Shown piece by piece: positions 11,468 to 36,182 of a DNA stretch of 48,240 nt. The translations under genes were made by a program, and so were the position numbers. The stretch covers positions 1 through 48,240 of the forward strand of contig CAJOGB010000001.1 of assembly GCA_905233835.1 (NCBI GenBank), in the 5' to 3' direction. The stretch comes from an uncultured Lachnospiraceae bacterium (GTDB taxonomy: Bacteria > Bacillota > Clostridia > Lachnospirales > Lachnospiraceae). How positions within the stretch are numbered: the stretch's first letter is position 1; each line of letters opens with the position of its first letter. Below the pieces are notes generated by a model, which was not told where the DNA came from, searched no databases, and saw only the letters and a list, made by a program, of their open reading frames with translations.

Positions 11468-12440
11468 CTACATTTCAGGTTTTAAGGCACGATTCATCAG
11501 TTCAAAAACCGCTTCTTTGGGATCTTTTTTCTCAAACAAAACTTCGTTTACACCACGGATGATGGGAAGATCCACATGATACTTTTCACCAAGTCCTAAG
11601 GCCGCCTTTGCGGAATAGGCGCCTTCCACCACCATCTGCACCTTTTTATAAGCTTCTTCGGGAGCAAAGCCCTGTCCGATATAATAGCCCGCCTTTCGGT
11701 TTCTGGAATGCTGTGACTGGCAGGTTACGATTAAATCGCCGACCCCGGTCAGACCTCCTAAGGTTTCCGGTTTTCCTCCCATGGCAAGAGCCAGTTTTTC
11801 CATCTCGCGAATGCCTCGGGTAATAAGTGCCGCCTTTGCGTTATCTCCGTATCCCAGTCCGTCGGACATGCCGGCAGCCAAAGCCATTACGTTTTTTAAA
11901 GAGGCACCGATTTCAATTCCAAGTACGTCATCACTGGTATACACACGGAAGTTTTCATTGGAAAAAATCTGTTGTGCTTCCACCGCAAAAGCTTCATCCT
12001 TTGCTCCAACCACTATGAGTGTTGGAAGTCCGATGACCACTTCCTCCGCATGGGACGGTCCGCGCATCAGGAAGTTCTTCTTCCACGATTTTTGTTTGGG
12101 TGAGATAAGATTCATCCTCGATTCCCTTGGAGACGGTAATGATTTTTTGTCCCGCCGGGATAAAGGGTTTTAACTTTTGGGCCGTTTCCCGTTCCGCCAC
12201 GGAAGGAACCGCCAAAACCAGCAAATCCTTTCCCTCGGCGGTTTCCTTTAAATCGGTACTAAACTTTAAGTCCTCCGGAAGTTTTGCGTTTGGAAGCTTA
12301 TCGTTTACCCCCGTTTTTTTCATCTCTTCCACTTGAGACGCACGGTGAGACCAAAGGGTTACATCATGTCCGTTTTTGCAAAGCAAGGAAGCTAGGGCAC
12401 TGCCCCAACTTCCCGCTCCGATCACTCCGATTTTTTTCAT
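11468..12440 (-). pseudogene. gpsA: NAD(P)H-dependent glycerol-3-phosphate dehydrogenase, reading frame broken at about 12059-12071
   Basis: The N-terminal ORF (11994..12440) reads MKKIGVIGAGSWGSALA...IVEEELPDA. The C-terminal ORF (11468..12115), in another frame, reads ...RGPSHAEEV...GDLIVTC...VVEGAY. Only 7 nt separate the EELP codons from the GPSHAEEV codons. Confidence 0.8.
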
Positions 12441-21742: not shown

Positions 21743-21946
21743 AAAAACTCCCGAAAATCTAATGTTTTCACGTACTTCATAAGTATAAATTTTTTGCGTC
21801 GGAAAATCAAGAAAGTCGCCGAATTCCCTACAGATTATCCTAAAGATTTTTCAAAAATTTCCGAAAAGTAATATGTAGAATATGTGGTGAAACGGAATTC
21901 CCAATATTTTTGCACGGAGGCACGAATATACGAGGATTCTTTTTTC

Positions 21947-24934
21947 ATGCAAATTAACGAGTTAAAAAATATGATGCTTGCAAATGCAGGCACTCCCAAT
22001 TCCATAAATACCTCCGTTTCCGGAGCCACCGGGTCTGAGAATATCAAAGATCACACAAAGACCGAGGGACTTCGAAACATTTCCGTAAAAAATCCTTTTT
22101 ACAACAAAGATGAATTAGGTGAAAAAACTTCTGCCGAATCTTTATCCGAGATTGAAGGTGCGGGCTTGTCCGCAAAGGAAGTAAAAGAACAAATGGTGCT
22201 TTCTTCCGAAAACATGACGGACACCGAGTACGGCAAGTTAAAGGAAGACGGCCACGATCCCATGGATATGGATCGTAAAGATTTTGTGACCATTGCAGAT
22301 AAAATCCGTGTGCAGCTGGCAAAAGGCGGCATGGATGTTTCCATCACCGGTGGTGTCTCTGACAAAGCGGTGGAAGCTTTGGGTGGAGATGCTGTAAGTA
22401 GTGCGGCCATTGATAAAGCAGTGGACAATGCCGTGAAAAAGGCAGCAGAGTTAAATGAGTTATCCGAAGATAACATGCTTTATCTTGTAAAGAATAACTT
22501 AGAGCCAACCATTGAGGCTTTGTTTGCGGCGGAATATTCCCAGGGCGCGGAGGCAGTTCGTCTTGGACCGGGGGAAACCATTGATTTTTCCAAACCGGAA
22601 ATGGCAGCCCTTTTGGAACAGGTGACAAGTGTGATTACGGAAGCCGGATTTGAGGCGGATGATACACAGATTGCAAACGCTGTGCTTTTGTTGGAAAACG
22701 AGATTCCGGTGACAGAGGATTCCATCAGCTATTTTTATACATTACAAACAGAGTCCCTTCATCTTTCTGCAAAGGAAGTAACGGAAGCGATTCTTACTTC
22801 TTTGGAAGAGGGCAATATGCCGGAAGATGCTTATCTGATGGAAGGATTTTCCCTAAAAGATCAGGCAAAGGAAGTAAACGACTACTTTCAAAATACGCCT
22901 GCGGAGGAAATCGCATTTTTATCTACGACAGAAGATCAGGTGGTAGCACTTCGTCAGGTAAATGAGATTCGTCTTATGATGACCATGGAAGCAAATTATG
23001 CCCTTTTAAAACAGGGCATTACAATTGATACCACTGAATTGGAAGAGTTGATTGAGAATCTAAAAGCGCAGGAAGCTTCTGCGACAGTGGAAGATAAAGT
23101 TGCGGAAGTTCTTACGGTAAAAGAAGAAGTAAAGAGCTATCCTATCGATCTTTTAGGTGCATTCTCCACAATGGATGCAATTGAACATGCAACCATAACG
23201 GATTTAAAAGTTACAGGTGCAGCGTTGGCTGCAAAATATGAAGCTGCAGGCGAGCGCTATGAAATCATGGGTACCGAGGTTCGTCGGGACTTGGGTGACT
23301 CCATTAAAAAAGCTTTCCGAAACGTGGATGATATCCTTTACGATTTGGGCATGGAAGTTTCCGAAGAAAACGAAAAAGCCGTTCGCATTTTAGGTTATAA
23401 CAGCTTAGAAATTACTGTGGAATCCGTTTCTACCATGCGCTACGCCAACGAGCTTGTAACTTCTACCTTTAAGGCGCTGACCCCGAAGGTGGTTACGGAA
23501 ATGATTAAAGAAGGCTTTTCTCCTCTTGATTCTTCTTTAAAAGAATTACAGGAAAAGGCCAAAGAAATTATAGCAAATATGAAAGACTCTTCAGGAGAGT
23601 TTTCCAACCATAATAAAGAGGATAACTTCGCTGAATTTTTGTGGAAACTGGAGCGCCAAAACGGCATCACAGAAGAACAGCGTCAAAGCTTTATCGGCGT
23701 CTATCGTTTGCTTCATCAGGTGGAAGCCACAGACGGCGCAGTGATTGGACAGCTTATAAATCAGGGTGCGGATCTTACCCTTCGAAACATGATGGGTGCG
23801 GTAAAAACCAGAAAGCATGAAAACCGCGACTATACCATTGACGATGATTTCGGCGGAATGGACAATACCACTTCTTCACTTTCCATTTTACAGCAGATCG
23901 AAGCCGCATTTATGACTTCTCGTGTCAGTGATGCCCGCATGGAGATTTCCGCATCTAAGATGATGCAGTTTGAAAACGAAGATTCCTATATGAATATGAA
24001 TCCGGATCAGTTTGCATCCGCGTTGGAATCCATGGATAAAGACGAGGCATTGGAAAAAGCTTTTGCGCAGGAAGAAATTTCCCGCATGCAAACTGCCGTA
24101 AATTCCGAAGAAAAAATCTATCAGATGTTAAAACAAATGGATATTCCTCAGACCCCGGCTTATTTGGAAGCCTGGGCGCAGTATATGCAAAATCGTAACC
24201 AGACCTTTAAGAATCTGGCAAGGCACTTAGGCGGGGATCGAGACGTCTTTTCCGAAATCGGAAGTGAGCTTGATTTTTCCGATATCGACGGACTTTTACA
24301 GACCACTATGGCTGATATTATCGAGGCCATGGGAGAAGCTTCCAAAACTCCGGAAGAAATGGCGGAAGCTCAGGAAAAATTGGCGGAAACCGCAGAAAAT
24401 GTCATGCGAAATATGTTGGTGGAAAAAGATGCAACTTCTATCGATGTTCGCGGCATGCGTATTACCGTTACCCAGCTTCAGATGCTTGGAAAACAGGCGC
24501 GTAAAACCGAGCAGTATGCGGTTCCCATTATGGTGGCGGACGAATACGGAAATATGTCACTAAAAATTGTTCGCGGAAAAGAAGAAGACAAAGGACAGGT
24601 GGATATTTTATTTGATATGGAATCCACCGGTGCGGTATCCGCGAAATTTAAATTTGAAGGAAATTCCCTTGACGGAAGCATCACCACTTCCTTACAGGCA
24701 ACGAGAGAACTTTTGTCTTCTCATATGGCTAATTTTGCGGCAGCAATGCAAAAAGCAGCAGATCTTCCGGTGGCATTAAGCTTCGGTTGGGAAAATAATT
24801 TGGATACGGATGCCGCTTTCGAAAACGACAAATACGACTTTGAAACCACCACGGAAAAACGTGAAATTCAGACAAGCAAGTTGTATGGAATCGCTCGAGC
24901 ATTTATCCAAACTTTAGGTGAAATTGCATCTTAA
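21947..24934 (+). CDS. Large acidic hypothetical protein with a FliK-like (hook-length control) C-terminal region
   Basis: The ORF is open from 21884. I prefer the ATG at 21947 (MQINELKN), which has GAGGA 11 nt upstream. It has no TM segment and is highly acidic. The C-terminal segment MSLKIVRGKEEDKGQVDILFDMESTGAVSAKFKFEGNSLDGSITTSLQATRELL resembles the Flg_hook/FliK C-terminal pattern. It sits directly upstream of flagellin. Confidence 0.6.
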   Translation: MQINELKNMMLANAGTPNSINTSVSGATGSENIKDHTKTEGLRNISVKNPFYNKDELGEKTSAESLSEIEGAGLSAKEVKEQMVLSSENMTDTEYGKLKEDGHDPMDMDRKDFVTIADKIRVQLAKGGMDVSITGGVSDKAVEALGGDAVSSAAIDKAVDNAVKKAAELNELSEDNMLYLVKNNLEPTIEALFAAEYSQGAEAVRLGPGETIDFSKPEMAALLEQVTSVITEAGFEADDTQIANAVLLLENEIPVTEDSISYFYTLQTESLHLSAKEVTEAILTSLEEGNMPEDAYLMEGFSLKDQAKEVNDYFQNTPAEEIAFLSTTEDQVVALRQVNEIRLMMTMEANYALLKQGITIDTTELEELIENLKAQEASATVEDKVAEVLTVKEEVKSYPIDLLGAFSTMDAIEHATITDLKVTGAALAAKYEAAGERYEIMGTEVRRDLGDSIKKAFRNVDDILYDLGMEVSEENEKAVRILGYNSLEITVESVSTMRYANELVTSTFKALTPKVVTEMIKEGFSPLDSSLKELQEKAKEIIANMKDSSGEFSNHNKEDNFAEFLWKLERQNGITEEQRQSFIGVYRLLHQVEATDGAVIGQLINQGADLTLRNMMGAVKTRKHENRDYTIDDDFGGMDNTTSSLSILQQIEAAFMTSRVSDARMEISASKMMQFENEDSYMNMNPDQFASALESMDKDEALEKAFAQEEISRMQTAVNSEEKIYQMLKQMDIPQTPAYLEAWAQYMQNRNQTFKNLARHLGGDRDVFSEIGSELDFSDIDGLLQTTMADIIEAMGEASKTPEEMAEAQEKLAETAENVMRNMLVEKDATSIDVRGMRITVTQLQMLGKQARKTEQYAVPIMVADEYGNMSLKIVRGKEEDKGQVDILFDMESTGAVSAKFKFEGNSLDGSITTSLQATRELLSSHMANFAAAMQKAADLPVALSFGWENNLDTDAAFENDKYDFETTTEKREIQTSKLYGIARAFIQTLGEIAS

Positions 24935-24957
24935 TTTTTCGGACAAAAATCCGATAA
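24931..24957 (+). promoter_or_regulatory. Candidate sigma-28 (SigD/FliA-type) promoter of the flagellin gene
   Basis: TAAT at 24932-24935 and CCGATAA at 24951-24957, with a 14-15 nt spacer. Compare the B. subtilis SigD consensus TAAA-N15-GCCGATAT (from memory). Confidence 0.5.
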
Positions 24958-24984
24958 AAATATTGTAAGACAAGGATTGTCATT

Positions 24985-25004
24985 TGAATGCATGGAAGCA
25001 TTTG
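24985..25004 (+). promoter_or_regulatory. 5'-UTR hairpin presenting GGA in its loop (CsrA-site-like)
   Basis: The stem is GAATGC/GCATTT (plus a possible U-G) with loop AUGGAA. Further AAGGA motifs lie at 24972-24976 and at the SD (25044-25048). Confidence 0.3.
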
Positions 25005-25055
25005 TTATTTTCGTGTATTCAATTGGCAATTTTTTTATGCAGAAAGGACTAGAAA

Positions 25056-26393
25056 ATGAAGGTTAATAATAATATTTCCGCAGTCATTACAAATAATCAG
25101 CTTCTTCGTACCGAAGATTCCTTGGCCGCTTCCATGGAGCGCCTTTCCTCAGGACTTAAAATCAACCACGCAAAGGATAATCCATCCGGCATGGCCATTT
25201 CCAATAAGATGCAGGCACAGATCAATGGACTTGATCAGGCTTCCAGAAACTCATCTGACGGAACGAGCGTTTTGGAAACCGCAGACGGAGCGTTAAACGA
25301 AGTTACCGCCATGCTTCAGCGTATGAGAGAGTTAGCGGTTCAGGCTGCCAACGATACCAACTCTCAGTCAGAAAAAGAAGCCATCCAGGTGGAAATTGAT
25401 AAGTTAAAAGAAGAGGTGGATCGTATTTCTTCCACCACAGAATTTAATACAAAGTCACTTTTAGACGGATCTTTGGATAACCGTGTATATGCAGACAACG
25501 TAAGCCGCATTCAGATTTCCGAAGACGTAGTTGCCGGTGAATATCATTTTGAGGTAACCCAGGCCGCTACTCAGGCAAAACAGTCCATCACATTACCAAC
25601 ATCCATTGCAGAAAGCGGTGTTCTTACCGTTAACGGATACGGCATTTATCTTGAAAAAGGAATGACCGAAGACGAAATCAAAGAAGCGGTTCGTGCAGGT
25701 GCGGAAATCGCGGAAGCGGAATTATCCCCGGACGGAACCACTCTTTCTTCCAAGGCATACGGTGCTGACGCAAAAATGGAAGTTAGCGTTGATTCCACTC
25801 TTTCTCCTTTCGGAATCGGAACCTACGAAGCACCGAAGGATGCAGAGATTACCATTGATAGCACATCCGCATTTACCGGAACAGCCACCGTTGTAACGGA
25901 AGGAAATAAACTTACTTTTACGGATGTAAAGGGATTTGAAATGTCCATGGTTTTGGAGGCAGGAGTAACCGGTGATTTTAATCTTAACGTAACCGACATG
26001 GGACCCATGGTATTACAGATTGGTGCCAACGAAGGTCAGCAGATGAGCGTTAAAATTCCAGCCTGCGATACAAAAAGCTTATATATCGATGCGGTAGATG
26101 TTACCACAGTTTTGGGTGCACAGCGTGCCATTTCTCAGTGTGATGATGCCATCGCATCCGTAAACAAAGTTCGTTCTTCTCTCGGTGCTTACACCAACCG
26201 TTTGGAATCCGCTACCAAGAGTTTGGATGAAACTTCCGAAAACATGAACTCAGCAATCTCTCGTATCTCCGATGTGGATATGGCCATTGAAATGACAGAG
26301 TACACAAGACTTAACGTACTTACCCAGGCTGCCACATCCGCTTTGTCTCAGGCAAACGAGTTACCGCAGATGGCATTACAGTTATTAGGATAA
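25056..26393 (+). CDS. fliC: Flagellin
   Basis: The conserved N-terminal D0/D1 reads MKVNNNISAV...RLSSGLKINHAKDNPSGMAIS...LQRMRELAVQAAN. The C-terminus reads ...SRISDVDMAIEMTEYTRLNVLTQAATSALSQANELPQMALQLLG. The middle is variable. Confidence 0.95.
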   Translation: MKVNNNISAVITNNQLLRTEDSLAASMERLSSGLKINHAKDNPSGMAISNKMQAQINGLDQASRNSSDGTSVLETADGALNEVTAMLQRMRELAVQAANDTNSQSEKEAIQVEIDKLKEEVDRISSTTEFNTKSLLDGSLDNRVYADNVSRIQISEDVVAGEYHFEVTQAATQAKQSITLPTSIAESGVLTVNGYGIYLEKGMTEDEIKEAVRAGAEIAEAELSPDGTTLSSKAYGADAKMEVSVDSTLSPFGIGTYEAPKDAEITIDSTSAFTGTATVVTEGNKLTFTDVKGFEMSMVLEAGVTGDFNLNVTDMGPMVLQIGANEGQQMSVKIPACDTKSLYIDAVDVTTVLGAQRAISQCDDAIASVNKVRSSLGAYTNRLESATKSLDETSENMNSAISRISDVDMAIEMTEYTRLNVLTQAATSALSQANELPQMALQLLG

Positions 26394-26409
26394 TCTTTAA
26401 GGAGATCCC

Positions 26410-26904
26410 ATGACAAAAGATCAGATTTCTTCTTTTCAAATAAGAATCACTCAAAGTAATAAGACGGAGTTAATTGTTACTTTATATGAAATTTATTTTG
26501 CTTATATCAATGATTGCCTTAGCGTGTTGTCTAAATTAACAGAAAAAAAAGAAAAAGCGGACTTGGACGAGTACGCAAAATCTCTTCGCATGGCCTCCCA
26601 GGTGGTACGACATTTGGAAGATGATTTAAATTTTTCCTATGAAATTTCAGGAAGTCTGTTCGGACTTTATCACTTCGTGGAAGGACGACTGGCCAAAGCA
26701 AGTTACTCACTTTCAAAAGAAGATTTAGAAGATACCTTAAAGGTGATGAAGCCTTTATACGAAAGCTTTAAAGAGGTGGCCACACAGGATGACTCCAAAC
26801 CTTTGATGCAGCACACCCAAAAAATTTCCGCAGGATACACCTACGGAAGAAATGATGTAAACGAATCTGTTGGCTCAGAAAGTAACAGAGGATTTTTTGC
26901 ATAG
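26410..26904 (+). CDS. fliS: Flagellar export chaperone FliS-like protein
   Basis: 164 aa, immediately after flagellin, with GGAG upstream. ITQSNKTELIVTLYEIYFAYINDCL resembles the FliS N-terminal helix pattern (..sp.eLi.mLYeg..). Confidence 0.6.
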   Translation: MTKDQISSFQIRITQSNKTELIVTLYEIYFAYINDCLSVLSKLTEKKEKADLDEYAKSLRMASQVVRHLEDDLNFSYEISGSLFGLYHFVEGRLAKASYSLSKEDLEDTLKVMKPLYESFKEVATQDDSKPLMQHTQKISAGYTYGRNDVNESVGSESNRGFFA

Positions 26905-26952: not shown

Positions 26953-27024
26953 GTTCAATAGTTACAATTTTTAATTTCATTATTTTCACCAAAGTTACAA
27001 AAATTATTTTTTTTTAAAAAATCT

Positions 27025-27054
27025 CTTGAAAAACTTTTGTCAGCGATTTTATAA
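27025..27054 (+). promoter_or_regulatory. Candidate sigma-A promoter of the Tad operon
   Basis: TTGAAA (27025-27030), an 18-nt spacer, then TATAAT (27049-27054), about 60 nt upstream of the first Tad ORF. A direct repeat AGTTACAA occurs at about 26959 and 26991. Confidence 0.5.
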
Positions 27055-27115
27055 TTAGCGCATTCACACAAATTCTTTTTTTCCCCTCAAACAACAGAAT
27101 AACGAAGGAGGCAAT

Positions 27116-28111
27116 ATGAGAGCTATCTCGATTGTTATCTGCGATACGGATTCCGCATTCGTACAGTCTTTAAGCTGGTTCCTTTGCGGGCAAATGAAAA
27201 ATATTTCCGTAGTTGCATTTACGCAGATGAATTCCTTTTTAAACAGCAGCGGTCACTATCACCTCGGTCTGTTTGGAAAAGAATTCTTGCAGGTATACGA
27301 GGAGCAAAATCCGGATCTTTGTATAGACGACATCTATTATTTGTCTTCTACCCTTGGCGAAGGATTTGGTTCTTACAATGTTTTCTACAAGTATCAAAAC
27401 ATGAGATGCTTACTGGAAATCATTGCCCAAAAACACCTTGAGGAAAAAATGGGCTGTAACGAATCGGAAAAGCCGAAAGTCTACGGCATTTATTCTCCGA
27501 TTCAACACGATCTAAGAGTTCCGTTTAGTCTTACATTTTCACATTTACTTTCACAAAAAAAGGAAACTCTATTTCTGGATTTAGAACCATTTAGTGTTCT
27601 ACCCGGTTTAATCCCTAACGACAGATTTGATACGGATTTCATGGATATTATGTATCTGTTGAAATCACAAAAAAATGACTTTGATTTAAAAAAATACATT
27701 TTTTATTTTGAAGATATCGCCATGCTACCCGTGGCAAAAAATCCATTCGATTTTGCTGCAGCGGACGAAGATGCATGGGATTTGCTTATTGAAAAAATAT
27801 TAAAACTGCGGTTTCAACTGGTGGTGTTATTTGACCGCCTCGATTCCGTATCCAAATGCTTCTATCCCATTATGGATGAACTCATCCTTTTGGGACGACC
27901 GGAAGATTACTACCGCTACAGCCAAGAATGCTGTCGTGAATATTTAAATGAATCGGATTTGGAGTTTTCTCTCCATTCCGTTGATTTAAACATGTCGGCA
28001 ACCGGATTAAAGGAAGGGTCTTTCGGTATGAAAAAAATTATCGAAGGAAATATGGCAGGGTTTATACAAAATGAATTTAAAGGAACGTTTGCGTCTGCAG
28101 GTATTAAATAA
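27116..28111 (+). CDS. TadZ/CpaE-like protein with pseudo-receiver N-domain and degenerate P-loop
   Basis: 331 aa with AAGGAGG upstream. The N-terminus ISIVICDTDSAF is receiver-like, but I see no Asp at the expected phospho-acceptor position. Where CpaE/MinD proteins have GGVGKT, it reads VYGIYSPIQHDLRVPFSLTFSHLL. It sits first in the operon, ahead of cpaF. Confidence 0.55.
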   Translation: MRAISIVICDTDSAFVQSLSWFLCGQMKNISVVAFTQMNSFLNSSGHYHLGLFGKEFLQVYEEQNPDLCIDDIYYLSSTLGEGFGSYNVFYKYQNMRCLLEIIAQKHLEEKMGCNESEKPKVYGIYSPIQHDLRVPFSLTFSHLLSQKKETLFLDLEPFSVLPGLIPNDRFDTDFMDIMYLLKSQKNDFDLKKYIFYFEDIAMLPVAKNPFDFAAADEDAWDLLIEKILKLRFQLVVLFDRLDSVSKCFYPIMDELILLGRPEDYYRYSQECCREYLNESDLEFSLHSVDLNMSATGLKEGSFGMKKIIEGNMAGFIQNEFKGTFASAGIK

Positions 28112-29291
28112 AATCGACGTCACCCGAGAATTGGAAGACAATGAAATCCGGGATTTAATCCGAGAAGAAATCCTTCTTTTGGGTCAGGAAAAAATGATCA
28201 CATTGGAACAAAAGCTTCGCTTAGAACAGGAAGTATTTAACTCCATACGAAAGTTTGATGTACTCCAGGATTTGCTCGATGACGATTCAATTTCGGAAAT
28301 TATGATTAATGGATGGCGGGATATCTACATCGAAAAGAACGGTCATATCACAAAAAGCAATTATATGTTTTCATCGGAAGAAAAACTCTACGACGTGATA
28401 CAACAAATCGTTTCCATGAACAATCGTATGGTAAATGAGAGTTCTCCGATTGTAGATACAAAACTGCCGGACGGCTCCAGAGTAAATGTAATTCTTTCTC
28501 CCGTTTCCATCGACCACAGCACGGTAACCATTCGTAAGTTTCCAAAAGAGCGAATCACCATGAAGACATTGATTGAAAAATCTTCTTTGTCCCAAGAAGT
28601 CGCCGACTTTTTGGAAAAGTTGGTAGTAAGCGGATACAACATTTTTATTTCCGGGCCGACTTCCAGCGGAAAAACCACGTTCTTAAATGCGTTAACGGAT
28701 TATATTCCAAAAACGGAACGAGTTGTAACCATCGAAGACTCCGCAGAACTGCAGATAAGTGGAATCGACAACCTGGTACGATTGGAATCCCGAAATGCCA
28801 CATTGGAAGGGAAACTGGAAATCCGTATTCGTGACCTGGTAAAAGCTGCCCTTCGTATCCGTCCGGATCGAATTATCGTCGGGGAATGTCGTGGTGCGGA
28901 AGCTCTTGATATGCTTCAGGCACTAAATACAGGACATGACGGCACCTTATCAACGGGTCACGGCAATTCCTCCATTGATATGATTTCAAGATTGGAAACC
29001 ATGGTTTTAATGGCGGATGACGTGGATCTTCCCATTACCGCCATCGACAAACAAATTGCTTCCGGCGTAGACATTTTTATTCATCTTTCAAGAATCAATA
29101 AAAGCCAACGTAAACTCATGGAAGTAAACGAAGTCATCGGATACGAAAACGGTGAAGTGAAATTACAAAAACTGTTTCAATACGAAAACAAAGAAGGAAA
29201 GGATGTATGGAAACGAGTCGGAACATTAAAGCACACGCAAAAATTAGAAGCATATTTCACAGAGAACTATACGGATACAAAGCCGACATAA
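28071..29291 (+). CDS. cpaF: CpaF/TadA-family type IV pilus (Tad) secretion ATPase
   Basis: Walker A is GPTSSGKTTFLNAL, the Asp box is VTIEDSAEL, Walker B is RIIVGECRGAEA and the His box is GHDGTLSTGHGNS. Confidence 0.9.
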   Translation: MNLKERLRLQVLNKIDVTRELEDNEIRDLIREEILLLGQEKMITLEQKLRLEQEVFNSIRKFDVLQDLLDDDSISEIMINGWRDIYIEKNGHITKSNYMFSSEEKLYDVIQQIVSMNNRMVNESSPIVDTKLPDGSRVNVILSPVSIDHSTVTIRKFPKERITMKTLIEKSSLSQEVADFLEKLVVSGYNIFISGPTSSGKTTFLNALTDYIPKTERVVTIEDSAELQISGIDNLVRLESRNATLEGKLEIRIRDLVKAALRIRPDRIIVGECRGAEALDMLQALNTGHDGTLSTGHGNSSIDMISRLETMVLMADDVDLPITAIDKQIASGVDIFIHLSRINKSQRKLMEVNEVIGYENGEVKLQKLFQYENKEGKDVWKRVGTLKHTQKLEAYFTENYTDTKPT

Positions 29292-30004
29292 AAGATTACG
29301 GCATCATCCTTTTGGGAAGCCTCTTGCTGTCCGGTCTGCTCGCTTTTTTATTCTACAACTCCGTATACGGTATGGTTCTTTTTCTTCCTGTTTTTCTGTG
29401 CGTCTACCTTTTCTATTTTTATCAAATTCAAAAGAAGCGCTTGGAAAAAATTAAAACGGAATTTCGCGAAATCTTGATGACGGTTGCAAACGGTTTGTCT
29501 GCAGGCAGTTCAGTGGAACGATCTTTTGGCGAAGCAGAGGACAATTTAAAAACCCTTTACAAAAACGACTGTATTTTGCAAAAGAATCTTCACGTGATGA
29601 ATCAGAAGGTCCGGATGGGAACAGCCATAGAGAAAGAATTTTATGCCTTTTCTTCACGGAGTAAAGTGGAAGAAATCGAAACCTTCGGAGAGCTGTTTTT
29701 ATACGCAAAACGCATGGGCGGAGATTATATCAAAAACATTCGCAGATTGGCTGTTCGTATGGATGAAAGAATTGCCACAAAAGAAGAACTGGAAAGTTTG
29801 TTGGCGGAAAAAATGCTGGAGCTTCGGATTATGTCTGTGGTTCCCATCGGAATCATGTTGTATCTACGTTTATCTGCCGCATCGTTTTTGGTTCCACTCT
29901 ATCAAAACGTGGGCGGTGCCTTGGTCATGACCGGTTGTTTTTTGTTATATGTCGGATCGGTACTGTTGGGGGTTGTTATCATTCGAAATACCTTGGAGGT
30001 TTAG
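29207..30004 (+). CDS. tadB: TadB-like type II secretion system F-family membrane protein
   Basis: 265 aa. It has an N-terminal TM, a cytoplasmic helical domain (EFREILMTVANGLSAGSSVERSF) and C-terminal TMs. The start is uncertain because it overlaps cpaF by 85 nt. Confidence 0.7.
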   Translation: METSRNIKAHAKIRSIFHRELYGYKADIKDYGIILLGSLLLSGLLAFLFYNSVYGMVLFLPVFLCVYLFYFYQIQKKRLEKIKTEFREILMTVANGLSAGSSVERSFGEAEDNLKTLYKNDCILQKNLHVMNQKVRMGTAIEKEFYAFSSRSKVEEIETFGELFLYAKRMGGDYIKNIRRLAVRMDERIATKEELESLLAEKMLELRIMSVVPIGIMLYLRLSAASFLVPLYQNVGGALVMTGCFLLYVGSVLLGVVIIRNTLEV

Positions 30005-31204
30005 ATGACGGAAAAGAAAATCAAACTGCTTGTAATTGGAATGGTTTTATTTGGATTGATTTTACAGGGATATTATGCCTTGGAAAGTATGTCATCCGTT
30101 ACCGCCATTAAGCGCCCCGAGGTTGGTGAAGATGCAAAGGATATCACATTGATAATGAAAGGAGAAGATGTATATGAGGAGGTTACGTTTACGGTGGACG
30201 AACAGCTGCCGTCAAAAGAAGCCATAGACCGGTATCTGGATTTGGCAAAACAGGAAATCGAAGAAAGCTTTTTGGGGGAAAACCGCTCTTTTGATGAAAT
30301 CAGAAAAAACGTGGTTTTAAAAGACAGTTATGCTAACGGAATGGTAGATGCAAGATGGAGTTTTTCTCCTCGAAAAATCATTACAAGTGAGGGAAAAATA
30401 GAATTTGATGAACTGGAGGAAGACACCCCCATCGTTTGTACGGCGATTCTGAATGCATTCGACAAGGAGCTTAGTTATTCCTTTCCTGTATGTGTAAAAG
30501 TTCCAAACGCTAACGAAAAAGATGGTTTTTTGTATTACATCAAAAAGGTATTAAAAGAAAAAAATAAAGAGGGAAAAGAAGAATTCGTATTACCGACTGA
30601 TCTATACGGGAAATCCATCACTTGGAACCAAAAAATTCCTTATACGGGATTTGAAATCAGTCTCTTAGGTTTGTTTATGGGAATCCTTTTAATCTTTGGA
30701 AATAAATATGATTCAAAGAAAGAGGTGAAAAATAAATTAGATATGTTTGAACAGTTCTATCCGGAGATTATCAGTGGTCTTACCCTATATATGGAGGCAG
30801 GTTTATCTTCCAGGCAAGCTTTCGAAAAAATGGGGGAAATATATCAAAAGCAACGGAACAAAACCGGCATAAAAAAAGAACCCTATGAGAATATTCTGAT
30901 TTTAAATCGGGAACTTCATGACGGAAAAAACACACGAAACGCATATGAGGATTTTGGAAGACGATGCTTGCATCCGGCTTACAAAAAAATGATGTTGCTA
31001 TTCGAGCAAAACATGCGCAAGGGGAACGAATATCTCCTGGAGCAATTGGAAAGAGAAGAAAAAAATGTTTACGAAACCAGACTGAGAAAAATTAAAAGTG
31101 CGGGCGAAACAGCATCCACCAAACTATTAATTCCAATGGGCGGATTGCTTGGCATGGTATTGATTGTTTTGGTGGTCCCCGCCTTTTTTACCATTCAAAT
31201 ATAG
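30005..31204 (+). CDS. tadC: TadC-like T2SS-F-family membrane protein with an extra ~200-aa N-terminal extracytoplasmic domain
   Basis: 399 aa. TM1 is LLVIGMVLFGLIL, followed by a soluble domain, a TM, a T2SSF-like segment (YPEIISGLTLYMEAGLSSRQAFEKMGE) and a C-terminal TM. Confidence 0.7.
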   Translation: MTEKKIKLLVIGMVLFGLILQGYYALESMSSVTAIKRPEVGEDAKDITLIMKGEDVYEEVTFTVDEQLPSKEAIDRYLDLAKQEIEESFLGENRSFDEIRKNVVLKDSYANGMVDARWSFSPRKIITSEGKIEFDELEEDTPIVCTAILNAFDKELSYSFPVCVKVPNANEKDGFLYYIKKVLKEKNKEGKEEFVLPTDLYGKSITWNQKIPYTGFEISLLGLFMGILLIFGNKYDSKKEVKNKLDMFEQFYPEIISGLTLYMEAGLSSRQAFEKMGEIYQKQRNKTGIKKEPYENILILNRELHDGKNTRNAYEDFGRRCLHPAYKKMMLLFEQNMRKGNEYLLEQLEREEKNVYETRLRKIKSAGETASTKLLIPMGGLLGMVLIVLVVPAFFTIQI

Positions 31205-31215
31205 GAGGAAATCAA

Positions 31216-31398
31216 ATGTTAAATTTTTGGAAATTTAAATGGAGCCAATACATGTGCTATGAAGACGGCATTGGTGTTGTGGAAATGATTTTATTATTGG
31301 TTGTAATTATTTCTTTGGTTTTAATCTTTAAAGAAAATATCACGGATTTGGTAAATGATATCTTTGAAACCATTGAAAAAAACGCTGCAAAAGTATGA
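31216..31398 (+). CDS. flp: Flp-family type IVb/IVc prepilin
   Basis: 60 aa with AGGAGGA 6 nt upstream. The leader is MLNFWKFKWSQYMCYEDG, then IGVVEMILLLVVIISLVLIF. This fits G/xxxxE cleavage with Glu at +5, followed by a hydrophobic helix and a short polar tail. Confidence 0.8.
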   Translation: MLNFWKFKWSQYMCYEDGIGVVEMILLLVVIISLVLIFKENITDLVNDIFETIEKNAAKV

Positions 31399-32891
31399 AA
31401 GAAGGAAGCGTAACCGTTTTTCTGGGCTTGTGTCTTTCCATGATTATGAGTCTGTTTTTTTCCATGACGGAAGTGACGCGATACTTTGCGCTTACACAGG
31501 AAAGTAAATCCCTGTTTTACTCTGCGACTCAATCCGCCTTTGGAGAATACAACCGTCCACTATGGGAAAACTACGGAATTCTGGCTATCGACACCGACTA
31601 TTGCAAAGCTTACAAAGAAGACGGTGTCTGCGATGCAGTCCGTTACTATCTTTCAGACGGCTATCAAGCTAAAAATATAATACAGGAAGCTTCCGTAGAT
31701 TTTTTAAAACTGTATACGGAGGATGTATCAAAAGACAGCTGCATCTATTTAACCGATGAAGCAGGCGCGGCATTGATAAAAGAAGCTGCCCGTTGCATGG
31801 AAGGTGAACTGGCCTCTTCCGTTATTTCGGAAATTCAAAAAAACTGTGAAAATATTTCCGAAGACAGCAAAAACGAAGTGGATTTGTCCACCATATTGGA
31901 AAATGCCTCTGAGTCCCTGGATCAAACACAAGTTGAGCAGCCCCCGGAGGAAAATGAAGAAGCCTCATCCGATGAAGGCAAACCAAAACAAAAGACGCCG
32001 GAAGGAAATGACGATGCAAAAAATCTGATTCAGGCAACTCGAGAATTTATCGCCACCGGTGTATTGGCACAGGTTATTTCTGTAGACTCAATTTCGGAAA
32101 CGGTCTATACCACACCGTCACCGGTATCGGAGCGACCTCTAAATACCGGAGACGGAAGTCCCGGCTCCGTCAATGCCTTTGAACGTGCTTTGTTCCAGTA
32201 CTATTTAACAAAACACTTTTCAAATTACACAAACCATGCGCACGAAGGTGGCATGAGCTATGAATTAGAGTATATTCTTTGCGGGAAAAAATCCGATCGA
32301 GAAAACTTAGCCGGCACCGTGGAGCGACTTTTGGCAATCCGGGAAGTAGAGAATCTGATATCTTTGCACCAGGATCCAAATAAAGTTGCCGAAGCAAAAG
32401 CCTTGGCCGCCACGGCGACAGCCGTATGCCTGCATCCCGAACTGGAAGAAATCGTAAGCTACGGTATCATGATTGCTTGGGCTTATCTGGAGAGCGTTTT
32501 GGATGTACGACTCTTACTCTCCGGTGGGAAAGTATCCTTTATCAAAACGCCCGGAGAATGGACCTCGCAACTGGCAGCTTTGCCTACTTATTTCAACACA
32601 TCCGTAAAAGCAAACGAGTGTGCTTCCGGCATCAATTATGAGCAATATCTGCTTGGACTTTTTACCGTAGAACGTCAGGAAAAACTGACCTATCGCTCTA
32701 TGGATTTGATGGAAGAAACACTCCATCAAATTGAGCACTACGAAAATGTTTGCATGGATCATATGCTGGTAGAAACATGTTTTTACGGGGATTTAAAGGG
32801 AAACAGCCTGTTTTTAAACTTTGTTCCATTATATGAATCGGATGAATCCGGATACGACTTTTCATACGAGCGCACCGTTTCGTACTTGTAG
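31395..32891 (+). CDS. Large pseudopilin-like/Tad-associated protein (TadE-like hydrophobic N-terminus, acidic linker, globular C-domain)
   Basis: 498 aa with an ATGA overlap onto flp. The N-terminus is MKEGSVTVFLGLCLSMIMSLFF (G-S-x-T-V then a TM). An acidic low-complexity stretch reads QVEQPPEENEEASSDEGKPKQKTPEGNDD. Confidence 0.6.
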   Translation: MKEGSVTVFLGLCLSMIMSLFFSMTEVTRYFALTQESKSLFYSATQSAFGEYNRPLWENYGILAIDTDYCKAYKEDGVCDAVRYYLSDGYQAKNIIQEASVDFLKLYTEDVSKDSCIYLTDEAGAALIKEAARCMEGELASSVISEIQKNCENISEDSKNEVDLSTILENASESLDQTQVEQPPEENEEASSDEGKPKQKTPEGNDDAKNLIQATREFIATGVLAQVISVDSISETVYTTPSPVSERPLNTGDGSPGSVNAFERALFQYYLTKHFSNYTNHAHEGGMSYELEYILCGKKSDRENLAGTVERLLAIREVENLISLHQDPNKVAEAKALAATATAVCLHPELEEIVSYGIMIAWAYLESVLDVRLLLSGGKVSFIKTPGEWTSQLAALPTYFNTSVKANECASGINYEQYLLGLFTVERQEKLTYRSMDLMEETLHQIEHYENVCMDHMLVETCFYGDLKGNSLFLNFVPLYESDESGYDFSYERTVSYL

Positions 32892-32902
32892 GAGGGAGAT
32901 GT

Positions 32903-33751
32903 GTGGGGGTGTCTCTAAACAAGAATCATCTATATTCGAATTATAAAAATAAAAATGACGGTCTCTTCTTGCGGGATAGAATGAAAGCTATAAGAAAGAG
33001 ACGCCCTTACCCATTTTCTTCCTACGAGACCGGAAGTTATACCATTGAAGCTGCAGTATTGTTGCCTATGTTTTTGGTCTTTGGCATGTTGGTTTTATTC
33101 TGCATGAAAACGGTGTATACCCAATGGAAAGTCTCTACGGTTTTGGATCAAATTGTGGACACCACTGCTTTATACGGAGAAAACCCGGGGGATGCTGTAT
33201 TGTACGGAGCCTTTTATACCTTGGCGGCCAAGGAAAAAGTCCCGACGGAAGATATCCTGGGCGGAATTGCCGGTATAACGCTTTTTCAGTCATCCTCAGA
33301 TGACTTGCGCATCGCCCTGTCCGCCGACTATATCATTACCTACCCCATTTCCCTACTTGGAAAACAGGGTTTTTACGTATCCCAAACACGAACAGCGCGC
33401 ATTTGGAACGGTTACGACCCAACACAAAACACCTCGGAAGAGGGAAGCATTGCATTTGTAACAAAATACGGGACTGTCTACCACTTGAGTCTCTCCTGTC
33501 CTCACATCGATTTAAGCATTCGAAGCATTTCAAAAGAGCAGCTTTCCGATGCCAAAAACTTATCCGGAGGTAAGTATAAAAAATGCCCGATGTGCGGGAA
33601 AAAAAGTGATGTTTATTATGTAACGGCCTGGGGGGATTGTTATCATAGCAGTCTATCCTGTTCCGGATTAAAGCGAACAATTTACCGCATCCCACTTGAG
33701 GACGCAAAAGCATCGTACAATCCCTGTTCAAAATGTGCGGCAGGTCAATAA
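32903..33751 (+). CDS. TadE-like pseudopilin with C-terminal tandem YH-x4-C...C-x2-C modules
   Basis: GTG start with GGAGGGAG upstream (alternative ATG at 32981). The N-terminal YETGSYTIEAAVLLPMFLVFGMLVLF matches the TadE pattern. The C-terminus carries two about 45-aa His/Cys modules. Confidence 0.65.
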   Translation: MGVSLNKNHLYSNYKNKNDGLFLRDRMKAIRKRRPYPFSSYETGSYTIEAAVLLPMFLVFGMLVLFCMKTVYTQWKVSTVLDQIVDTTALYGENPGDAVLYGAFYTLAAKEKVPTEDILGGIAGITLFQSSSDDLRIALSADYIITYPISLLGKQGFYVSQTRTARIWNGYDPTQNTSEEGSIAFVTKYGTVYHLSLSCPHIDLSIRSISKEQLSDAKNLSGGKYKKCPMCGKKSDVYYVTAWGDCYHSSLSCSGLKRTIYRIPLEDAKASYNPCSKCAAGQ

Positions 33752-33765
33752 ACGGAGAAGAAAAA

Positions 33766-34197
33766 ATGGAAATTGGATGTTTAATGGGGGCTTTATCCCT
33801 ACTTTCACTGGAAGATTTAAGAATCAAAAAAATACCGATTGTGCCGTTGCTTTTAACCGGTATTGTCGGAATGATTCTTCACTTAATCTATGGAAATCGA
33901 GAAATAACGGATATCCTTGGGGGACTTTCCATCGGTTTTATACTGTATGCAATCTGCCTGATTACGAAAGGGAAAATTGGAAAAGGCGACTGCTATTTGT
34001 ATATGGTTACCGGCGTTTATTTGGGGTTCTGGAATAACCTTCTTCTGCTTTGGCTTTCTTCCGTTTTAGCCGGCGTAGTCGGTATTTCCGTTATGTTGCT
34101 GAAAAAAAAGAATCGCGATTACAAACTTCCTTTTGTACCGTTTACTTTTATTGCGGCACTTTTGATGCTTCTGGCGGGAGGAGGGAAGTTTGCATGA
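33766..34197 (+). CDS. A24-family prepilin peptidase (TadV/CpaA-like, no methyltransferase domain)
   Basis: Polytopic, about 143 aa. The first Asp context is LEDLRIKKIP and the second is GKGDCYLY (GxGD). I prefer the ATG at 33766, with GGAG 8 nt upstream, over the ORF-track start at 33733. Confidence 0.75.
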   Translation: MEIGCLMGALSLLSLEDLRIKKIPIVPLLLTGIVGMILHLIYGNREITDILGGLSIGFILYAICLITKGKIGKGDCYLYMVTGVYLGFWNNLLLLWLSSVLAGVVGISVMLLKKKNRDYKLPFVPFTFIAALLMLLAGGGKFA

Positions 34198-34418
34198 AAG
34201 AATCCCGATACTATCTCGACGGAAGTTACACCGTAGAAGCTACTGCGATATTCGGAATCACCATCGGTATCATCTTTCTTATGATTGCACTTGGATTTCG
34301 AGTTTATCACACATATTGCTCCGACATTTGTGCTTATGAGATCTCGGATGATAACCCAACTGATAAATTCCGCCTGATTACCTACGGAAAAGAATTATTG
34401 GAGGAGGTATTTGAATAA
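34194..34418 (+). CDS. Small TadE-like pseudopilin
   Basis: 74 aa from an internal ATG with an ATGA overlap onto the peptidase stop and GGAGGAGGGAAG upstream. It reads MKESRYYLDGSYTVEATAIFGITIGIIFLMIALGF. Confidence 0.6.
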   Translation: MKESRYYLDGSYTVEATAIFGITIGIIFLMIALGFRVYHTYCSDICAYEISDDNPTDKFRLITYGKELLEEVFE

Positions 34419-35557
34419 TGAATGTCAGTTACAAACGGACATCAAATAAAAACTATATGATTATTGAAGGAGAAGATTGTCCCTTGGGATTTGAAACCTC
34501 TATGTTTTTAGAAAACAAACCGGCTTCTCTTTTAGAATCGCATACCATGGAAATCAATGGTTATATTCAATATTGGTATGACATTACCGGGAAAAAATCT
34601 TTACGGGATTTCTTCGATCAGGAAGGTATCACAAAGGAGAATCTTAAGAGTGCATTTTTCGGTATTCAAAAATCACTTTTGTCTTTAGCGGAATACCTAA
34701 TCGGAGAAGATCATCTGTATTTAACTGTGGACACCATCTTTTTTGATCAAAAAACCCACGGAGGGATTTATCTTTGTTTTTGTCCACTTTCCCTTCCGCC
34801 TCATACCGATCAACTTCAATCGATTGCGCAGCATCTTATAACCACAGTCGACCATCATAATCCTGAGGCCACAAAGCTATGCTACGATATGTATGGAATC
34901 ACGGAACAAAACCGATTTTCATTATCGGATTTTATCGGGGTCTTGGACGAAGACTGCGCCAACATATTTGAATCCCGCGAACCTTCTTACGAACCCGGCG
35001 TTCCGAAAGAAATCACGGAAGAAGACATTCGTCAGGTTGCAGATGATATCGGAGAAGATTGCTTTACGGAAGAATCCGATACACATAACTCATTCTTTAG
35101 ACTTATCAAACACCGCTTTACAGAGTGGAAAGAAAAGTTATCTTCCAAAAGAGAAGAATTATTTCCGGAAGACGAATACTTAAAAGACATTGAATTTGAC
35201 GAAGTAATCCCCCGCGAGGAACCGGATACCCAAACGGTTTTACTCGCCGAAAATCCTTCCGCCTGTTGCGGAAAACTGATTCACGACACGGGGGATTTCC
35301 CGAATGACTTTTATATTTCCCATACTCCTTTTCGCATCGGATCAAAAAGCGGCGGAAATGACGCTGTCATAAACTCTCCTGCCGTAAGTCGTTATCACGC
35401 GAAGATTATTCGAAAAGACGGTGTTTATTATCTTATAGATTTAAACAGTACCAACGGAACCTTTTTAAACGGAAAAATATTAAACTACAACGAGTCGGTT
35501 CCGTTAAAATCCATGGATACCATATCCTTTGCGGATGTAATGTATCACATCATATAA
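34418..35557 (+). CDS. FHA-domain protein with a large uncharacterised N-terminal domain
   Basis: 379 aa with a TAATG overlap onto the upstream gene. The C-terminal FHA signature is FRIGSKSGGNDAVINSPAVSRYHAKIIRKDGVYYLIDLNSTNGTFLNGK. Confidence 0.8.
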   Translation: MNVSYKRTSNKNYMIIEGEDCPLGFETSMFLENKPASLLESHTMEINGYIQYWYDITGKKSLRDFFDQEGITKENLKSAFFGIQKSLLSLAEYLIGEDHLYLTVDTIFFDQKTHGGIYLCFCPLSLPPHTDQLQSIAQHLITTVDHHNPEATKLCYDMYGITEQNRFSLSDFIGVLDEDCANIFESREPSYEPGVPKEITEEDIRQVADDIGEDCFTEESDTHNSFFRLIKHRFTEWKEKLSSKREELFPEDEYLKDIEFDEVIPREEPDTQTVLLAENPSACCGKLIHDTGDFPNDFYISHTPFRIGSKSGGNDAVINSPAVSRYHAKIIRKDGVYYLIDLNSTNGTFLNGKILNYNESVPLKSMDTISFADVMYHII

Positions 35558-35583
35558 AAAAGAGACGGCCGTTGCCGTCCCTG
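35556..35583. terminator. Hairpin between the convergent FHA gene and recR (better terminator for recR)
   Basis: AGAGACGGC-CGTT-GCCGTCCCT (one mismatch). On the minus strand it is followed by TTTTTT. On the plus strand it is followed only by GATTTAT. Confidence 0.6.
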
Positions 35584-35585
35584 AT

Positions 35586-36182
35586 TTATAACTCCCGTCT
35601 GCCTTCTAAGGCACGAAGGAGTGTGATTTCATCCGTATTTTCCAAGTCGCCTCCCACCGGCACACCGCTGGCGATTCGAGTGACTTTGATATCGGTACCC
35701 TTTACCAACTTACTGATGTACATGGCAGTTGTTTCACCTTCCAAAGAAGAATTCGTCGCGATGATGATTTCTTTCACATCTCCCTGCAAACGGGTCATTA
35801 ACTCCTTTAAACGAATATCCTCAGGCCCGATTCCCTGCATGGGAGAAATTGTACCGTGAAGTACGTGATACACACCTTTGTACTCTTTGATATGCTCATA
35901 GGCTGCCATATCCCTAGAATCCTCAACAACCATGATGGTCTTGTGGTCTCTTGTCGAATCAGCACAAATCGGACAGACGTTCTGATCTGTCAGTGTAAAG
36001 CATTCCTTGCAAAAGCGGACATTCTCTCTTGCAGAAAGAATGGTTTCCGACAGTCTTTTTACATCATCCTTGGGCATATGCAAAATATGAAAAGCCAAGC
36101 GTTGGGCCGATTTGGCCCCAATGCTTGGTAAACTTGATAATTCTGCAATCAATTGTGAAATTTGTTTGCTGTAATATTCCAC
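35586..36182 (-). CDS. recR: Recombination protein RecR
   Basis: 198 aa. It has an HhH N-terminus ([15 protein letters not shown]), a C4 zinc finger ([16 protein letters not shown]) and a Toprim domain. Confidence 0.95.

Follow-up and report, generated by a model that had tools for sequence, protein, structure and literature searches.

A probable modular TadE-type pilin with two ADA_N-like modules in the Tad locus of Lachnospiraceae

The 48,240-nucleotide stretch of DNA analyzed here, referred to throughout as the window, comes from an uncultured rumen Lachnospiraceae bacterium (contig CAJOGB010000001.1 of assembly GCA_905233835.1) and includes a Tad (type IVc) pilus locus, one gene of which (32903..33751, plus strand) is the subject of this report. 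The protein it encodes is very probably a modular TadE-type pilin that ends in two ADA_N-like modules, and the ligand sets of these modules make it quite likely that they bind zinc. The explanation that we find best overall, and regard as fairly probable, is that of a Tad minor pilin displaying two basic zinc modules on an acidic linker and binding an anionic ligand.

The two modules lie at the C-terminal end of the protein. Module 1 (residues 184-234; 33452..33604, plus strand) reads Y193-H194-x4-C199-x28-C228-x2-C231 and includes a copy-specific insert, R/K-N-x-S-G-G-K-Y; module 2 (residues 237-282; 33611..33748, plus strand) reads Y247-H248-x4-C253-x21-C275-x2-C278 and carries the conserved motif CSGLKRTIY. 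Both were delimited from the repeat, from conservation, from AlphaFold2 (AF2) models and from hhalign comparisons. A first-pass annotation of this DNA had reported two tandem YH-x4-C...C-x2-C copies in the span 33455-33742, which corresponds to residues F185-A280; the two C-terminal peptides it quoted match the plus-strand translation of 32903-33751 exactly, and all eight ligands can be read directly in the DNA, as H194 (CAC, 33482-84), C199 (TGT, 33497-99), C228 (TGC, 33584-86) and C231 (TGC, 33593-95) for the first copy and H248 (CAT, 33644-46), C253 (TGT, 33659-61), C275 (TGT, 33725-27) and C278 (TGT, 33734-36) for the second. The copies align with each other by BLASTP at E 1e-7 with 38% identity, and they are therefore a true tandem duplication.

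Conservation was assessed in 41 diverse homologues, which share 31-75% identity with the query; the mean column identity of their alignment is 32%. Its invariant columns are almost confined to the modules: G190, Y193, H194, C199, G222, Y225, C228 and C231 in the first, and Y239, T241, G244, H248, C253, C275 and C278 in the second. All eight Cys and His ligands, whose loss among orthologues had been named beforehand as grounds for giving up the claim, are thus invariant, and the first ligand is His in all 82 module copies. Exactly two modules are present in 119 of 120 homologues, with the spacing H-x4-C-x28-C-x2-C in copy 1 and H-x4-C-x20..22-C-x2-C in copy 2. The motifs RNxSGGKY (the eight-residue insert of copy 1) and CSGLKRTIY (copy 2) are likewise strongly conserved, each in its own copy. 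Across the 41 homologues the mean net charge is +3.1 for module 1 and +3.0 for module 2, with -3.2 for the linker and a value near 0 for the head; in the window protein the two modules have net charges of +6 and +2, respectively.

Neither Pfam nor NCBIfam holds a family for the protein, for its 98-aa C-terminus or for any of 44 single modules, scattered sub-threshold zinc-finger noise being all that these searches returned, and a word-index homology search with a 45-aa module profile gave five gene fragments only. Searching the phage and plasmid collections by tblastn with the C-terminus produced weak matches, taken as leads: the final ~45 residues of an "MBL fold metallo-hydrolase" encoded on a C. 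botulinum plasmid (...VYYTPNGECYHSSKKCYTLKRSKKIITGTVKKCGGRRPCSKCH), a membrane-anchored protein of C. tetani (...VYVTATGGKYHGAGCRYLSRSCYEIDISDAKGRGYTPCSRCSP) and the Fusobacterium phage protein FNU4_51, annotated as "putative Metal binding domain of Ada". Among the 120 best homologues of the C. botulinum protein, 109 carry the module at their C-terminus, and these are Clostridium ComEC/Rec2-family or MBL-fold secreted hydrolases. When a profile of the pilin modules is compared by hhalign with a profile of 35 such ComEC/Rec2-type modules, the two align over 44 columns (Prob 98.1%, E 7e-14) with the four ligands in register; copy 2 alone does as well (Prob 98.1%, E 8.5e-14), and a six-frame scan of the window with the ComEC/Rec2-type profile has its sole match in the open reading frame (ORF) 32903-33751 (E 1.2e-13). 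The earlier statement that the pattern is found at the ends of ComEC-type and other secreted Firmicute proteins was therefore sound, and the profile search of the C-terminal region that had been suggested along with it leads to this relationship where Pfam and NCBIfam have no model. The ComEC/Rec2-type profile in turn aligns with a 13-sequence profile of the Ada N-domain (Prob 86.7%, E 4.3e-6), placing its His on Cys38, its first Cys on Cys42 and its CxxC on Cys69/72.

The AF2 model of the C-terminus has a predicted local distance difference test (pLDDT) score of 90.3 and gives each module the order strand-strand-(His..Cys loop)-strand-helix-CxxC, in which strand 2 ends with the His and the helix precedes the CxxC; this is the four-ligand layout of ADA_N-like domains. 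In a Foldseek search of BFVD, a set of predicted viral structures, the top match is a "Metal binding domain of Ada" (prob 1.00, E 0.053, rmsd 2.7 A), and Ada-type names stand on 8 of the top 41 matches; the full-length model has no Foldseek match in the PDB. Pei et al. (2025) described "ADA_N-like" zinc fingers at the C-termini of secreted Gram-positive proteins, with the C. difficile ComEC/Rec2 protein Q187P0, Cwp27, M. tuberculosis ArfC and an LGFP-repeat protein as examples, of which ComEC and Cwp27 have signal peptides (PMC12353581). As judged from profiles and predicted fold, the module is an ADA_N-like zinc finger of extracytoplasmic His/Cys3 type, and its fold is probably Ada-like, not that of a zinc ribbon. 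The zinc-ribbon-like spacing suggested in the first-pass annotation does not hold up, as the AF2 order of elements is that of the Ada N-terminal zinc domain and the ADA_N-like group: the first ligand pair (H-x4-C) sits in a loop after a strand and the second after a helix, as opposed to two beta-hairpin CxxC knuckles, and no zinc-ribbon model in Pfam is significant.

Homology to C2H2 zinc fingers was also considered and set aside. The PDB profile search matched C2H2 fingers only, through a chance likeness of "SGGKYKKCPMCGK" to the "TGEKPYKCPECGK" linker, and the misleading match, at E 1.2e-7, is the designed six-finger protein 2i13, a trap for automated annotation. The stretch that mimics the eukaryotic C2H2 linker-knuckle is made up of the copy-1 insert and knuckle (window 33560-33600, residues ~220-233).

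The N-terminal zinc domain of E. coli Ada itself (PF02805; PDB 1u8b, 1eyf) has the same order of elements, strand-turn-strand, two loop ligands, strand, helix and CxxC, with a ligand spacing of C38-x3-C42-x26-C69-x2-C72 compared with H-x4-C-x20..28-C-x2-C in the pilin modules. Cys38 is the methyl acceptor of Ada. The pilin modules differ in having His as the first ligand in place of this reactive Cys (82 of 82 copies), in being extracytoplasmic and C-terminal, following a signal or anchor helix, and in being accompanied by no helix-turn-helix (HTH) or MGMT methyltransferase domain by Pfam; this last point argues that the pilin module is not a DNA-repair or transcription switch, and a functional Ada methyl-acceptor domain was rejected on these grounds. 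It is conceivable that the modules hold no metal at all, the cysteines forming disulfides or the module serving as an Ada-type alkyl acceptor or alkylation sensor: there are three Cys per module in an extracytoplasmic protein, and it has been proposed that ADA_N-like domains might sense alkylated DNA (PMC12353581). However, an odd number of Cys would leave one without a partner, and together with the invariant His the three make up a classic set of four ligands; the organisms concerned live as strict anaerobes in rumen and gut; and the differences from Ada just listed speak against the sensor, so that we consider a metal-free module extremely improbable.

In three proteins outside pili, the C. 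botulinum MBL protein, FNU4_51 of the Fusobacterium phage and the C. tetani protein, the module stands behind a signal of lipoprotein type (LVVALYGC), a signal peptide or a membrane anchor. Arrays of 11-15 copies stand after membrane segments in four proteins, P0248 (932 aa), P0249 (1129 aa), P0250 (810 aa, from a Christensenellales metagenome-assembled genome, or MAG) and P0316 (864 aa). The module is thus known outside pili, on MBL hydrolases, on small secreted and phage proteins and in arrays, as would be expected of the grafted domain of a modular pilin. The array proteins have an acidic cytoplasmic N-terminus, then predicted membrane segments, then the modules, split by Ser/Thr-rich linkers; Pfam finds in them a weak PAS_9 for P0249 only (with no stretch passing alone) and no module model, and such multi-copy ADA_N-like arrays appear to be undescribed. 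Two further proteins with 3-4 modules, P0246 and P0247, look like mis-assemblies with duplicated segments and were left uncounted as new architectures. Phages of Firmicutes and Fusobacteria encode small secreted proteins that amount to one or two ADA_N-like modules behind a signal peptide; in FNU4_51 (L003 1435-1647, Fusobacterium phage vB_FnuS_FNU4) the last CxxC has decayed to C-K-I-G-Y.

The rest of the protein has the plan of a TadE-like pseudopilin. It is listed as an ORF of 282 aa, with 223 homologues at E<=1e-3, and residues are numbered here accordingly; since the homologues open with M-S-L-N and a ribosome-binding site (AGGAGGGAG, 32890-98) lies 10 nt ahead of GTG 32909, the true start is probably at 32909, which would give 280 aa. 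Of the earlier description as a 282-aa TadE-like protein, the family has held and the length probably has not. The leader peptide (residues 1-43; 32903..33031, plus strand) has a net charge of +7 and ends at Gly43, the predicted prepilin-peptidase cleavage site. With a slash for the predicted cut, the junction reads ...RKRRPYPFSSYETG/SYTIEAAVLLPMFLVFGMLVLF, or, written further, ...KAIRKRRPYPFSSYETG/SYTIEAAVLLPMFLVFGMLVLF, a basic leader with Gly at -1 and Glu at +5 (E49). Prepilin peptidases cut after Gly or Ala (PMC10191384), and among 120 homologues scanned, 111 of which had a findable motif, G occupies -1 in 73 and A does so in 26 (99/111).

The mature N-terminus (SYTIEAAVLLPMFLVFGMLVLF...; 33032..33127, plus strand) forms the hydrophobic alpha-1 helix of a type IV pilin, as judged from conservation, the AF2 helix at 48-91 and the Pfam TadE match; the class III signal G43/SYTIE is followed by a hydrophobic helix of ~22 residues. 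E49, A50 and P55 are at least 90% conserved in the 41-homologue alignment, and both the G/SxTxEAA motif and AA..LP are conserved across the family. A small pilin head follows (residues 76-170; 33128..33412, plus strand), modeled as two helices and a beta-hairpin sheet at pLDDT 88-98, in which Y143, W168 and G170 are invariant, and then the acidic linker (residues 171-183; 33413..33451, plus strand), which is modeled at low confidence (pLDDT 58 for the block 171-180) and presumably flexible. The AF2 model of the full-length protein, built from the 41-sequence alignment, has a mean pLDDT of 84.8 and shows the same series of helix, small head, low-confidence segment and two modules. Pfam TadE (PF07811) matches 29 of the 41 homologues, with a best E of 6.5e-10. 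The class III signal, the TadE matches and an adjoining prepilin peptidase gene together uphold the TadE-like pseudopilin proposed in the first-pass annotation. A basic leader on the inside and a single hydrophobic helix would put everything past residue ~75 outside the membrane, so the modules are predicted to be extracytoplasmic and not, as had been raised as a possible objection, in the cytoplasm.

Homologues of the protein are numerous. All 223 are unnamed or "hypothetical" in the database searched, those with a named source coming from Lachnospiraceae or Clostridiales. A locus survey, with one genome per species and an 8-sequence alignment as query, found that at least 165 species-level genomes encode a relative; synteny was counted in 80 of these loci, which include Roseburia, Agathobacter, Dorea, Blautia, Mediterraneibacter, Eubacterium, Lachnoclostridium, Anaerocolumna, Robinsoniella and Bariatricus. 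Represented there are Eubacterium oxidoreducens DSM 3217, Dorea amylophila H5_25 and Lachnospiraceae bacterium JLR.KK009, along with MAGs of Roseburia and Agathobacter. Nearly all of the 80 are labeled as Lachnospiraceae or its member genera, with a few MAG records labeled otherwise, e.g. Muribaculaceae and Bacteroides. In an exhaustive HMMER search with the module profile, 2,820 cluster representatives matched at E<=1e-3, of which 2,033 reach E<=1e-10; almost all of the top 150 are two-module proteins, mostly of ~250-340 aa, and the shorter ones look like truncated gene calls. The two-module fusion is the normal state of the gene in this family and no oddity of one genome. The fusion to a Tad pseudopilin, which had at first seemed unusual, is therefore the standard form of the gene across Lachnospiraceae, and the papers searched contain no description of it: literature searches on DUF5702, DUF6382, Tad pili of Lachnospiraceae and zinc-binding minor pilins brought up no account of the protein, and a pilin fusion is absent from the ADA_N-like architectures given in PMC12353581. 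Known kinds of element, modular pilins and ADA_N-like domains, are joined here in an architecture that is not described in those papers.

The locus is also present in bovine and sheep gut and in other gut metagenomes. In two bovine-gut runs labeled as metatranscriptomes (X12 and X17), contigs of a ~98-99% identical strain cover the whole Tad locus (27000-35700), and one 1.9-kb contig runs from the zinc-module pilin gene through those for the peptidase and the 74-aa pilin into the beginning of the FHA gene, which is compatible with co-transcription. The depth of these contigs is flat and DNA carry-over is possible, so we make no claim of expression.

The genes around the pilin, all on the plus strand, form an ordered set: a 331-aa ORF, CpaF/TadA, TadB, TadC, Flp, the DUF5702 protein, the zinc-module pilin, an A24 peptidase, a 74-aa ORF and a DUF6382 protein with a forkhead-associated (FHA) domain. 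Flp, CpaF, TadB, TadC and a prepilin peptidase, the parts of a Tad machine, are thus encoded together with the pilin. The CpaF/TadA ATPase (28071-29291; Pfam T2SSE, E 5.3e-55) is followed by TadB (29207-30004) and TadC (30005-31204), both recognized by Pfam T2SSF (E 1.6e-6 and 1.3e-4), by the Flp-type major pilin (31216..31398; Pfam Flp1_like, E 2.3e-20; junction YEDG/IGVVE) and by the 498-aa DUF5702 protein (31395..32891; Pfam DUF5702, E 1.8e-77). Downstream of the zinc-module pilin are the A24-family prepilin peptidase (33733..34197, with a likely start at ATG 33767; Pfam Peptidase_A24, E 3.1e-9), the 74-aa protein (34194..34418) and, closing the locus, the DUF6382 + FHA protein (34418..35557; Pfam DUF6382, E 3.3e-38, and FHA, E 2e-18). 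In the 80 loci, DUF5702 is directly upstream of the pilin in 80, the peptidase downstream in 76 and FHA in 73, with TadC, CpaF and TadB present in 68-71.

The DUF5702 protein starts with MKEG/SVTVFLGLCLSMIM... (KEG/SVTVF), a pilin-like signal that has no Glu at +5. Subunits without Glu5 cap the minor-pilin tip complexes of other type IV filaments. The DUF5702 protein may thus be the large tip or cap pilin of this Tad system, and since the zinc-module pilin keeps its Glu5, the DUF5702 protein is the better candidate for the cap, with the zinc-module pilin beneath it. The 74-aa protein, MKESRYYLDG/SYTVEATAIFG..., is recognizable by its sequence and has no Pfam or NCBIfam match; it is probably a third, minimal pilin of the locus, and was found by tblastn in only 3 of the 80 loci, probably because it is short and divergent. 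The partnership with a DUF6382-FHA protein, FHA being a phosphothreonine-binding domain, has to our knowledge no counterpart in classical Tad systems. At the head of the locus, the 331-aa ORF (27116-28111) overlaps the start of the CpaF/TadA gene and matches nothing in Pfam or among PDB sequences; in 33 of the 80 loci it can be detected ahead of CpaF, and it occupies the position expected for TadZ/CpaE.

Several results weigh against the explanation favored here. As for the pilin, a leader of ~41 residues seems long for a pseudopilin, ~10% of the 120 homologues scanned for the pattern have no clean G/A at -1, and the window protein itself scores only 15.8 bits with Pfam TadE (E 0.016, residues 44-66), compared with a curated cut-off of 22.9, so that by sequence the family is TadE-like and the window member is sub-threshold. 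As for the modules, direct hhalign of the pilin modules against E. coli Ada or the 13-sequence Ada profile gives Prob 1-5%, so that their apparent homology to Ada is transitive only, through the ComEC/Rec2-type modules; and Foldseek of the C-terminal model against the PDB finds nothing significant, N-Ada 1u8b ranking tenth at E 6.3. As for the role, modules so strictly conserved and so constant in number would suit an internal task in assembly no less than an adhesin; the cell-wall-binding and LGFP repeats with which the module is also combined suggest the envelope as readily as DNA; and according to PMC12353581 ADA_N-like domains have no established function.

The long, basic leader, the sub-threshold TadE score and the homologues that depart from G/A at -1 would all suit a protein that is no pilus subunit but an uncleaved, bitopic membrane protein of the Tad machine, comparable to TadG, with its zinc modules on the outer face of the membrane. 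We think this very unlikely, given that the family as a whole keeps G/A at -1, Glu at +5 and AA..LP, that Pfam TadE is significant for most homologues in the alignment and that the peptidase gene is nearly always adjacent.

A weightier alternative, though an unlikely one in our estimate, is that the modules are protein-protein knobs by which the pseudopilin is docked onto another part of the system (the DUF5702 protein, the 74-aa pilin or the platform), with no external ligand, for priming pilus assembly or for passing the thick Gram-positive wall. The two modules and their spacing are constant in all but one of 120 homologues; the copy-specific motifs suit a fixed partner better than a variable ligand of host or environment; the gene adjoins DUF5702 in every one of the 80 loci; and core minor pilins, which form priming complexes, are more conserved than accessory ones (PMC10191384). 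On the other hand, the same module is found on unrelated secreted enzymes and in the 11-15-copy arrays, where there is no pilus context, which makes it a portable binding unit and not a pilus-specific adaptor, and in the AF2 model the modules hang on the low-confidence acidic linker and are not packed on the head.

Another possibility is that the target of the modules is peptidoglycan or an anionic polymer of the cell's own wall, where they would hold the pseudopilin or the base of the pilus, the module on secreted hydrolases being then a surface-retention tag. In secreted proteins of Gram-positive bacteria the module usually stands as the final domain; it is basic (+3 to +5) and co-occurs with cell-wall-binding PF04122 repeats (beside the module in P0143, P0179 and P0202), with LGFP repeats and with CW_binding_2 (PMC12353581). 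We nevertheless hold envelope binding to be quite improbable: proteins that have CW_binding_2 anchors need no second anchor, the pilin is already held by its helix, and Pfam, NCBIfam and PDB profile searches found no likeness to known wall-binding folds.

Comparison with known systems helps to place the displayed-module pilin. The TadE/TadF proteins of Aggregatibacter actinomycetemcomitans and the TadE of Bifidobacterium breve share its G/xxxxE motif and Pfam TadE N-terminal region, and their genes likewise stand beside Flp, TadB/C, TadA and a TadV-type peptidase. Classical TadE and TadF end after a small head. To this plan the zinc-module family adds ~110 residues, the linker and two modules, and its locus has the DUF5702 and DUF6382-FHA proteins instead of TadG, TadZ and RcpABC; TadE and TadF are required minor pilins (PMC10191384, PMC6916266), a role that would apply here by analogy. 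The ADA_N-like proteins Q187P0 and Cwp27 have V-Y-x-T-x-x-G-x-x-Y-H-x3-4-C...C-x2-C at the end of an extracytoplasmic protein, as the pilin does, the comparison having been made through 35 Clostridium ComEC/Rec2-type C-termini of the same annotation and architecture and not with Q187P0 and Cwp27 themselves; the pilin family differs in its TadE-type carrier, in the tandem duplication and in the RNxSGGKY insert of copy 1.

The closest parallel in design is with the modular pilins of Streptococcus sanguinis, PilB, with a vWA module, and PilC, with a lectin module (Raynaud et al. 2021, as cited in PMC10191384). These too are low-abundance subunits of a pilus locus with a C-terminal graft, expected in a tip or priming complex. 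They differ in being type IVa pilins with an N-methylation-type signal, as opposed to a TadE-like pseudopilin of Tad (type IVc), and in carrying an adhesin fold of known specificity in place of a pair of ~45-residue zinc modules; Pfam, PDB profile and Foldseek searches found no homology to their grafted parts. Another parallel, proposed in the first-pass annotation, is with Neisseria ComP and Legionella FimT, DNA-receptor minor pilins that bind through the pilin head or C-terminal tail. The zinc-module pilin would resemble them as a minor pilin exposing a positive surface; they differ in having no grafted zinc modules, and no relation of sequence or fold to them was found.

On the whole we lean by a little towards an externally displayed, ligand-binding role. 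The adjoining prepilin peptidase would cut after Gly43, and the helix would then be built into the pilus, probably within a priming or tip complex that also takes in the DUF5702 protein and the 74-aa pilin, the further low-abundance pilins of the locus. Each module would fold round one Zn2+, held by one His and three Cys, a core that may stand in for disulfide bonds in a strict anaerobe, and the two basic modules (~+3 each) would be shown outside the cell as grafted binding domains. The display of grafted domains and the placing among low-abundance pilins follow what is known of other pili, where modular pilins that bear a grafted domain are widespread and tip complexes are built from minor pilins (PMC10191384, PMC6916266). 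Because the modules are basic, the ligand may be an anionic polymer, and extracellular DNA is the leading candidate, since the same module occurs on ComEC-type putative DNases and appears related to the DNA-binding Ada domain; this is the most speculative step, and DNA as the ligand is a possibility that we put forward only tentatively. It would fit with the precedent of Micrococcus luteus, in which natural transformation needs Flp/Tad pili (Angelov 2015, as cited in PMC6916266).

The Tad locus is immediately preceded, on its own strand, by flagellar genes (21884-26904, plus) for a 1016-aa DUF6240/FliK-like protein, flagellin and FliS, and the flagellar and Tad sets of surface appendages are thus neighbors in the window. 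The rest of the window is ordinary chromosome, with genes for glycogen branching enzyme, aconitase, HydF/HydG, ATP synthase, recR and dnaX. The gpsA gene is split into two overlapping ORFs (11468-12440, minus strand), with the N-terminal domain at 11994-12440 and the C-terminal at 11468-12115; the frameshift near 12000-12110 marks either a pseudogene or an assembly error.

Tad pili are colonization factors whose minor pilins are poorly understood, and descriptions of modular pilins have so far mostly concerned type IVa pili. The Tad pseudopilin of this report has its fixed pair of zinc modules in at least 165 species of Lachnospiraceae, among them abundant butyrate producers from rumen and human gut, and the modules offer a defined, small and expressible candidate for what the Tad pili of these bacteria bind. 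They also offer a natural system for finding the function of ADA_N-like domains, which were recognized only in 2025, and they point to a gap in Pfam and NCBIfam, where ~2,800 module-matching protein clusters and the pseudopilin family are annotated as "hypothetical" with no model at the level of the module. If the ligand is DNA, this would link Tad pili to gene exchange or to biofilm DNA in gut commensals. The boldest form of this idea, which we regard as a long shot, is that the Lachnospiraceae Tad pilus (in Roseburia, Agathobacter, Dorea, Blautia and relatives) captures extracellular DNA, with the twin modules as its DNA receptor, a zinc-finger counterpart of ComP and FimT. The pilus would then feed DNA uptake or DNA-based aggregation in dominant commensals of gut and rumen, and extracellular DNA binding, common to the secreted ComEC-type hydrolases as well, would be the first function for the ADA_N-like family.

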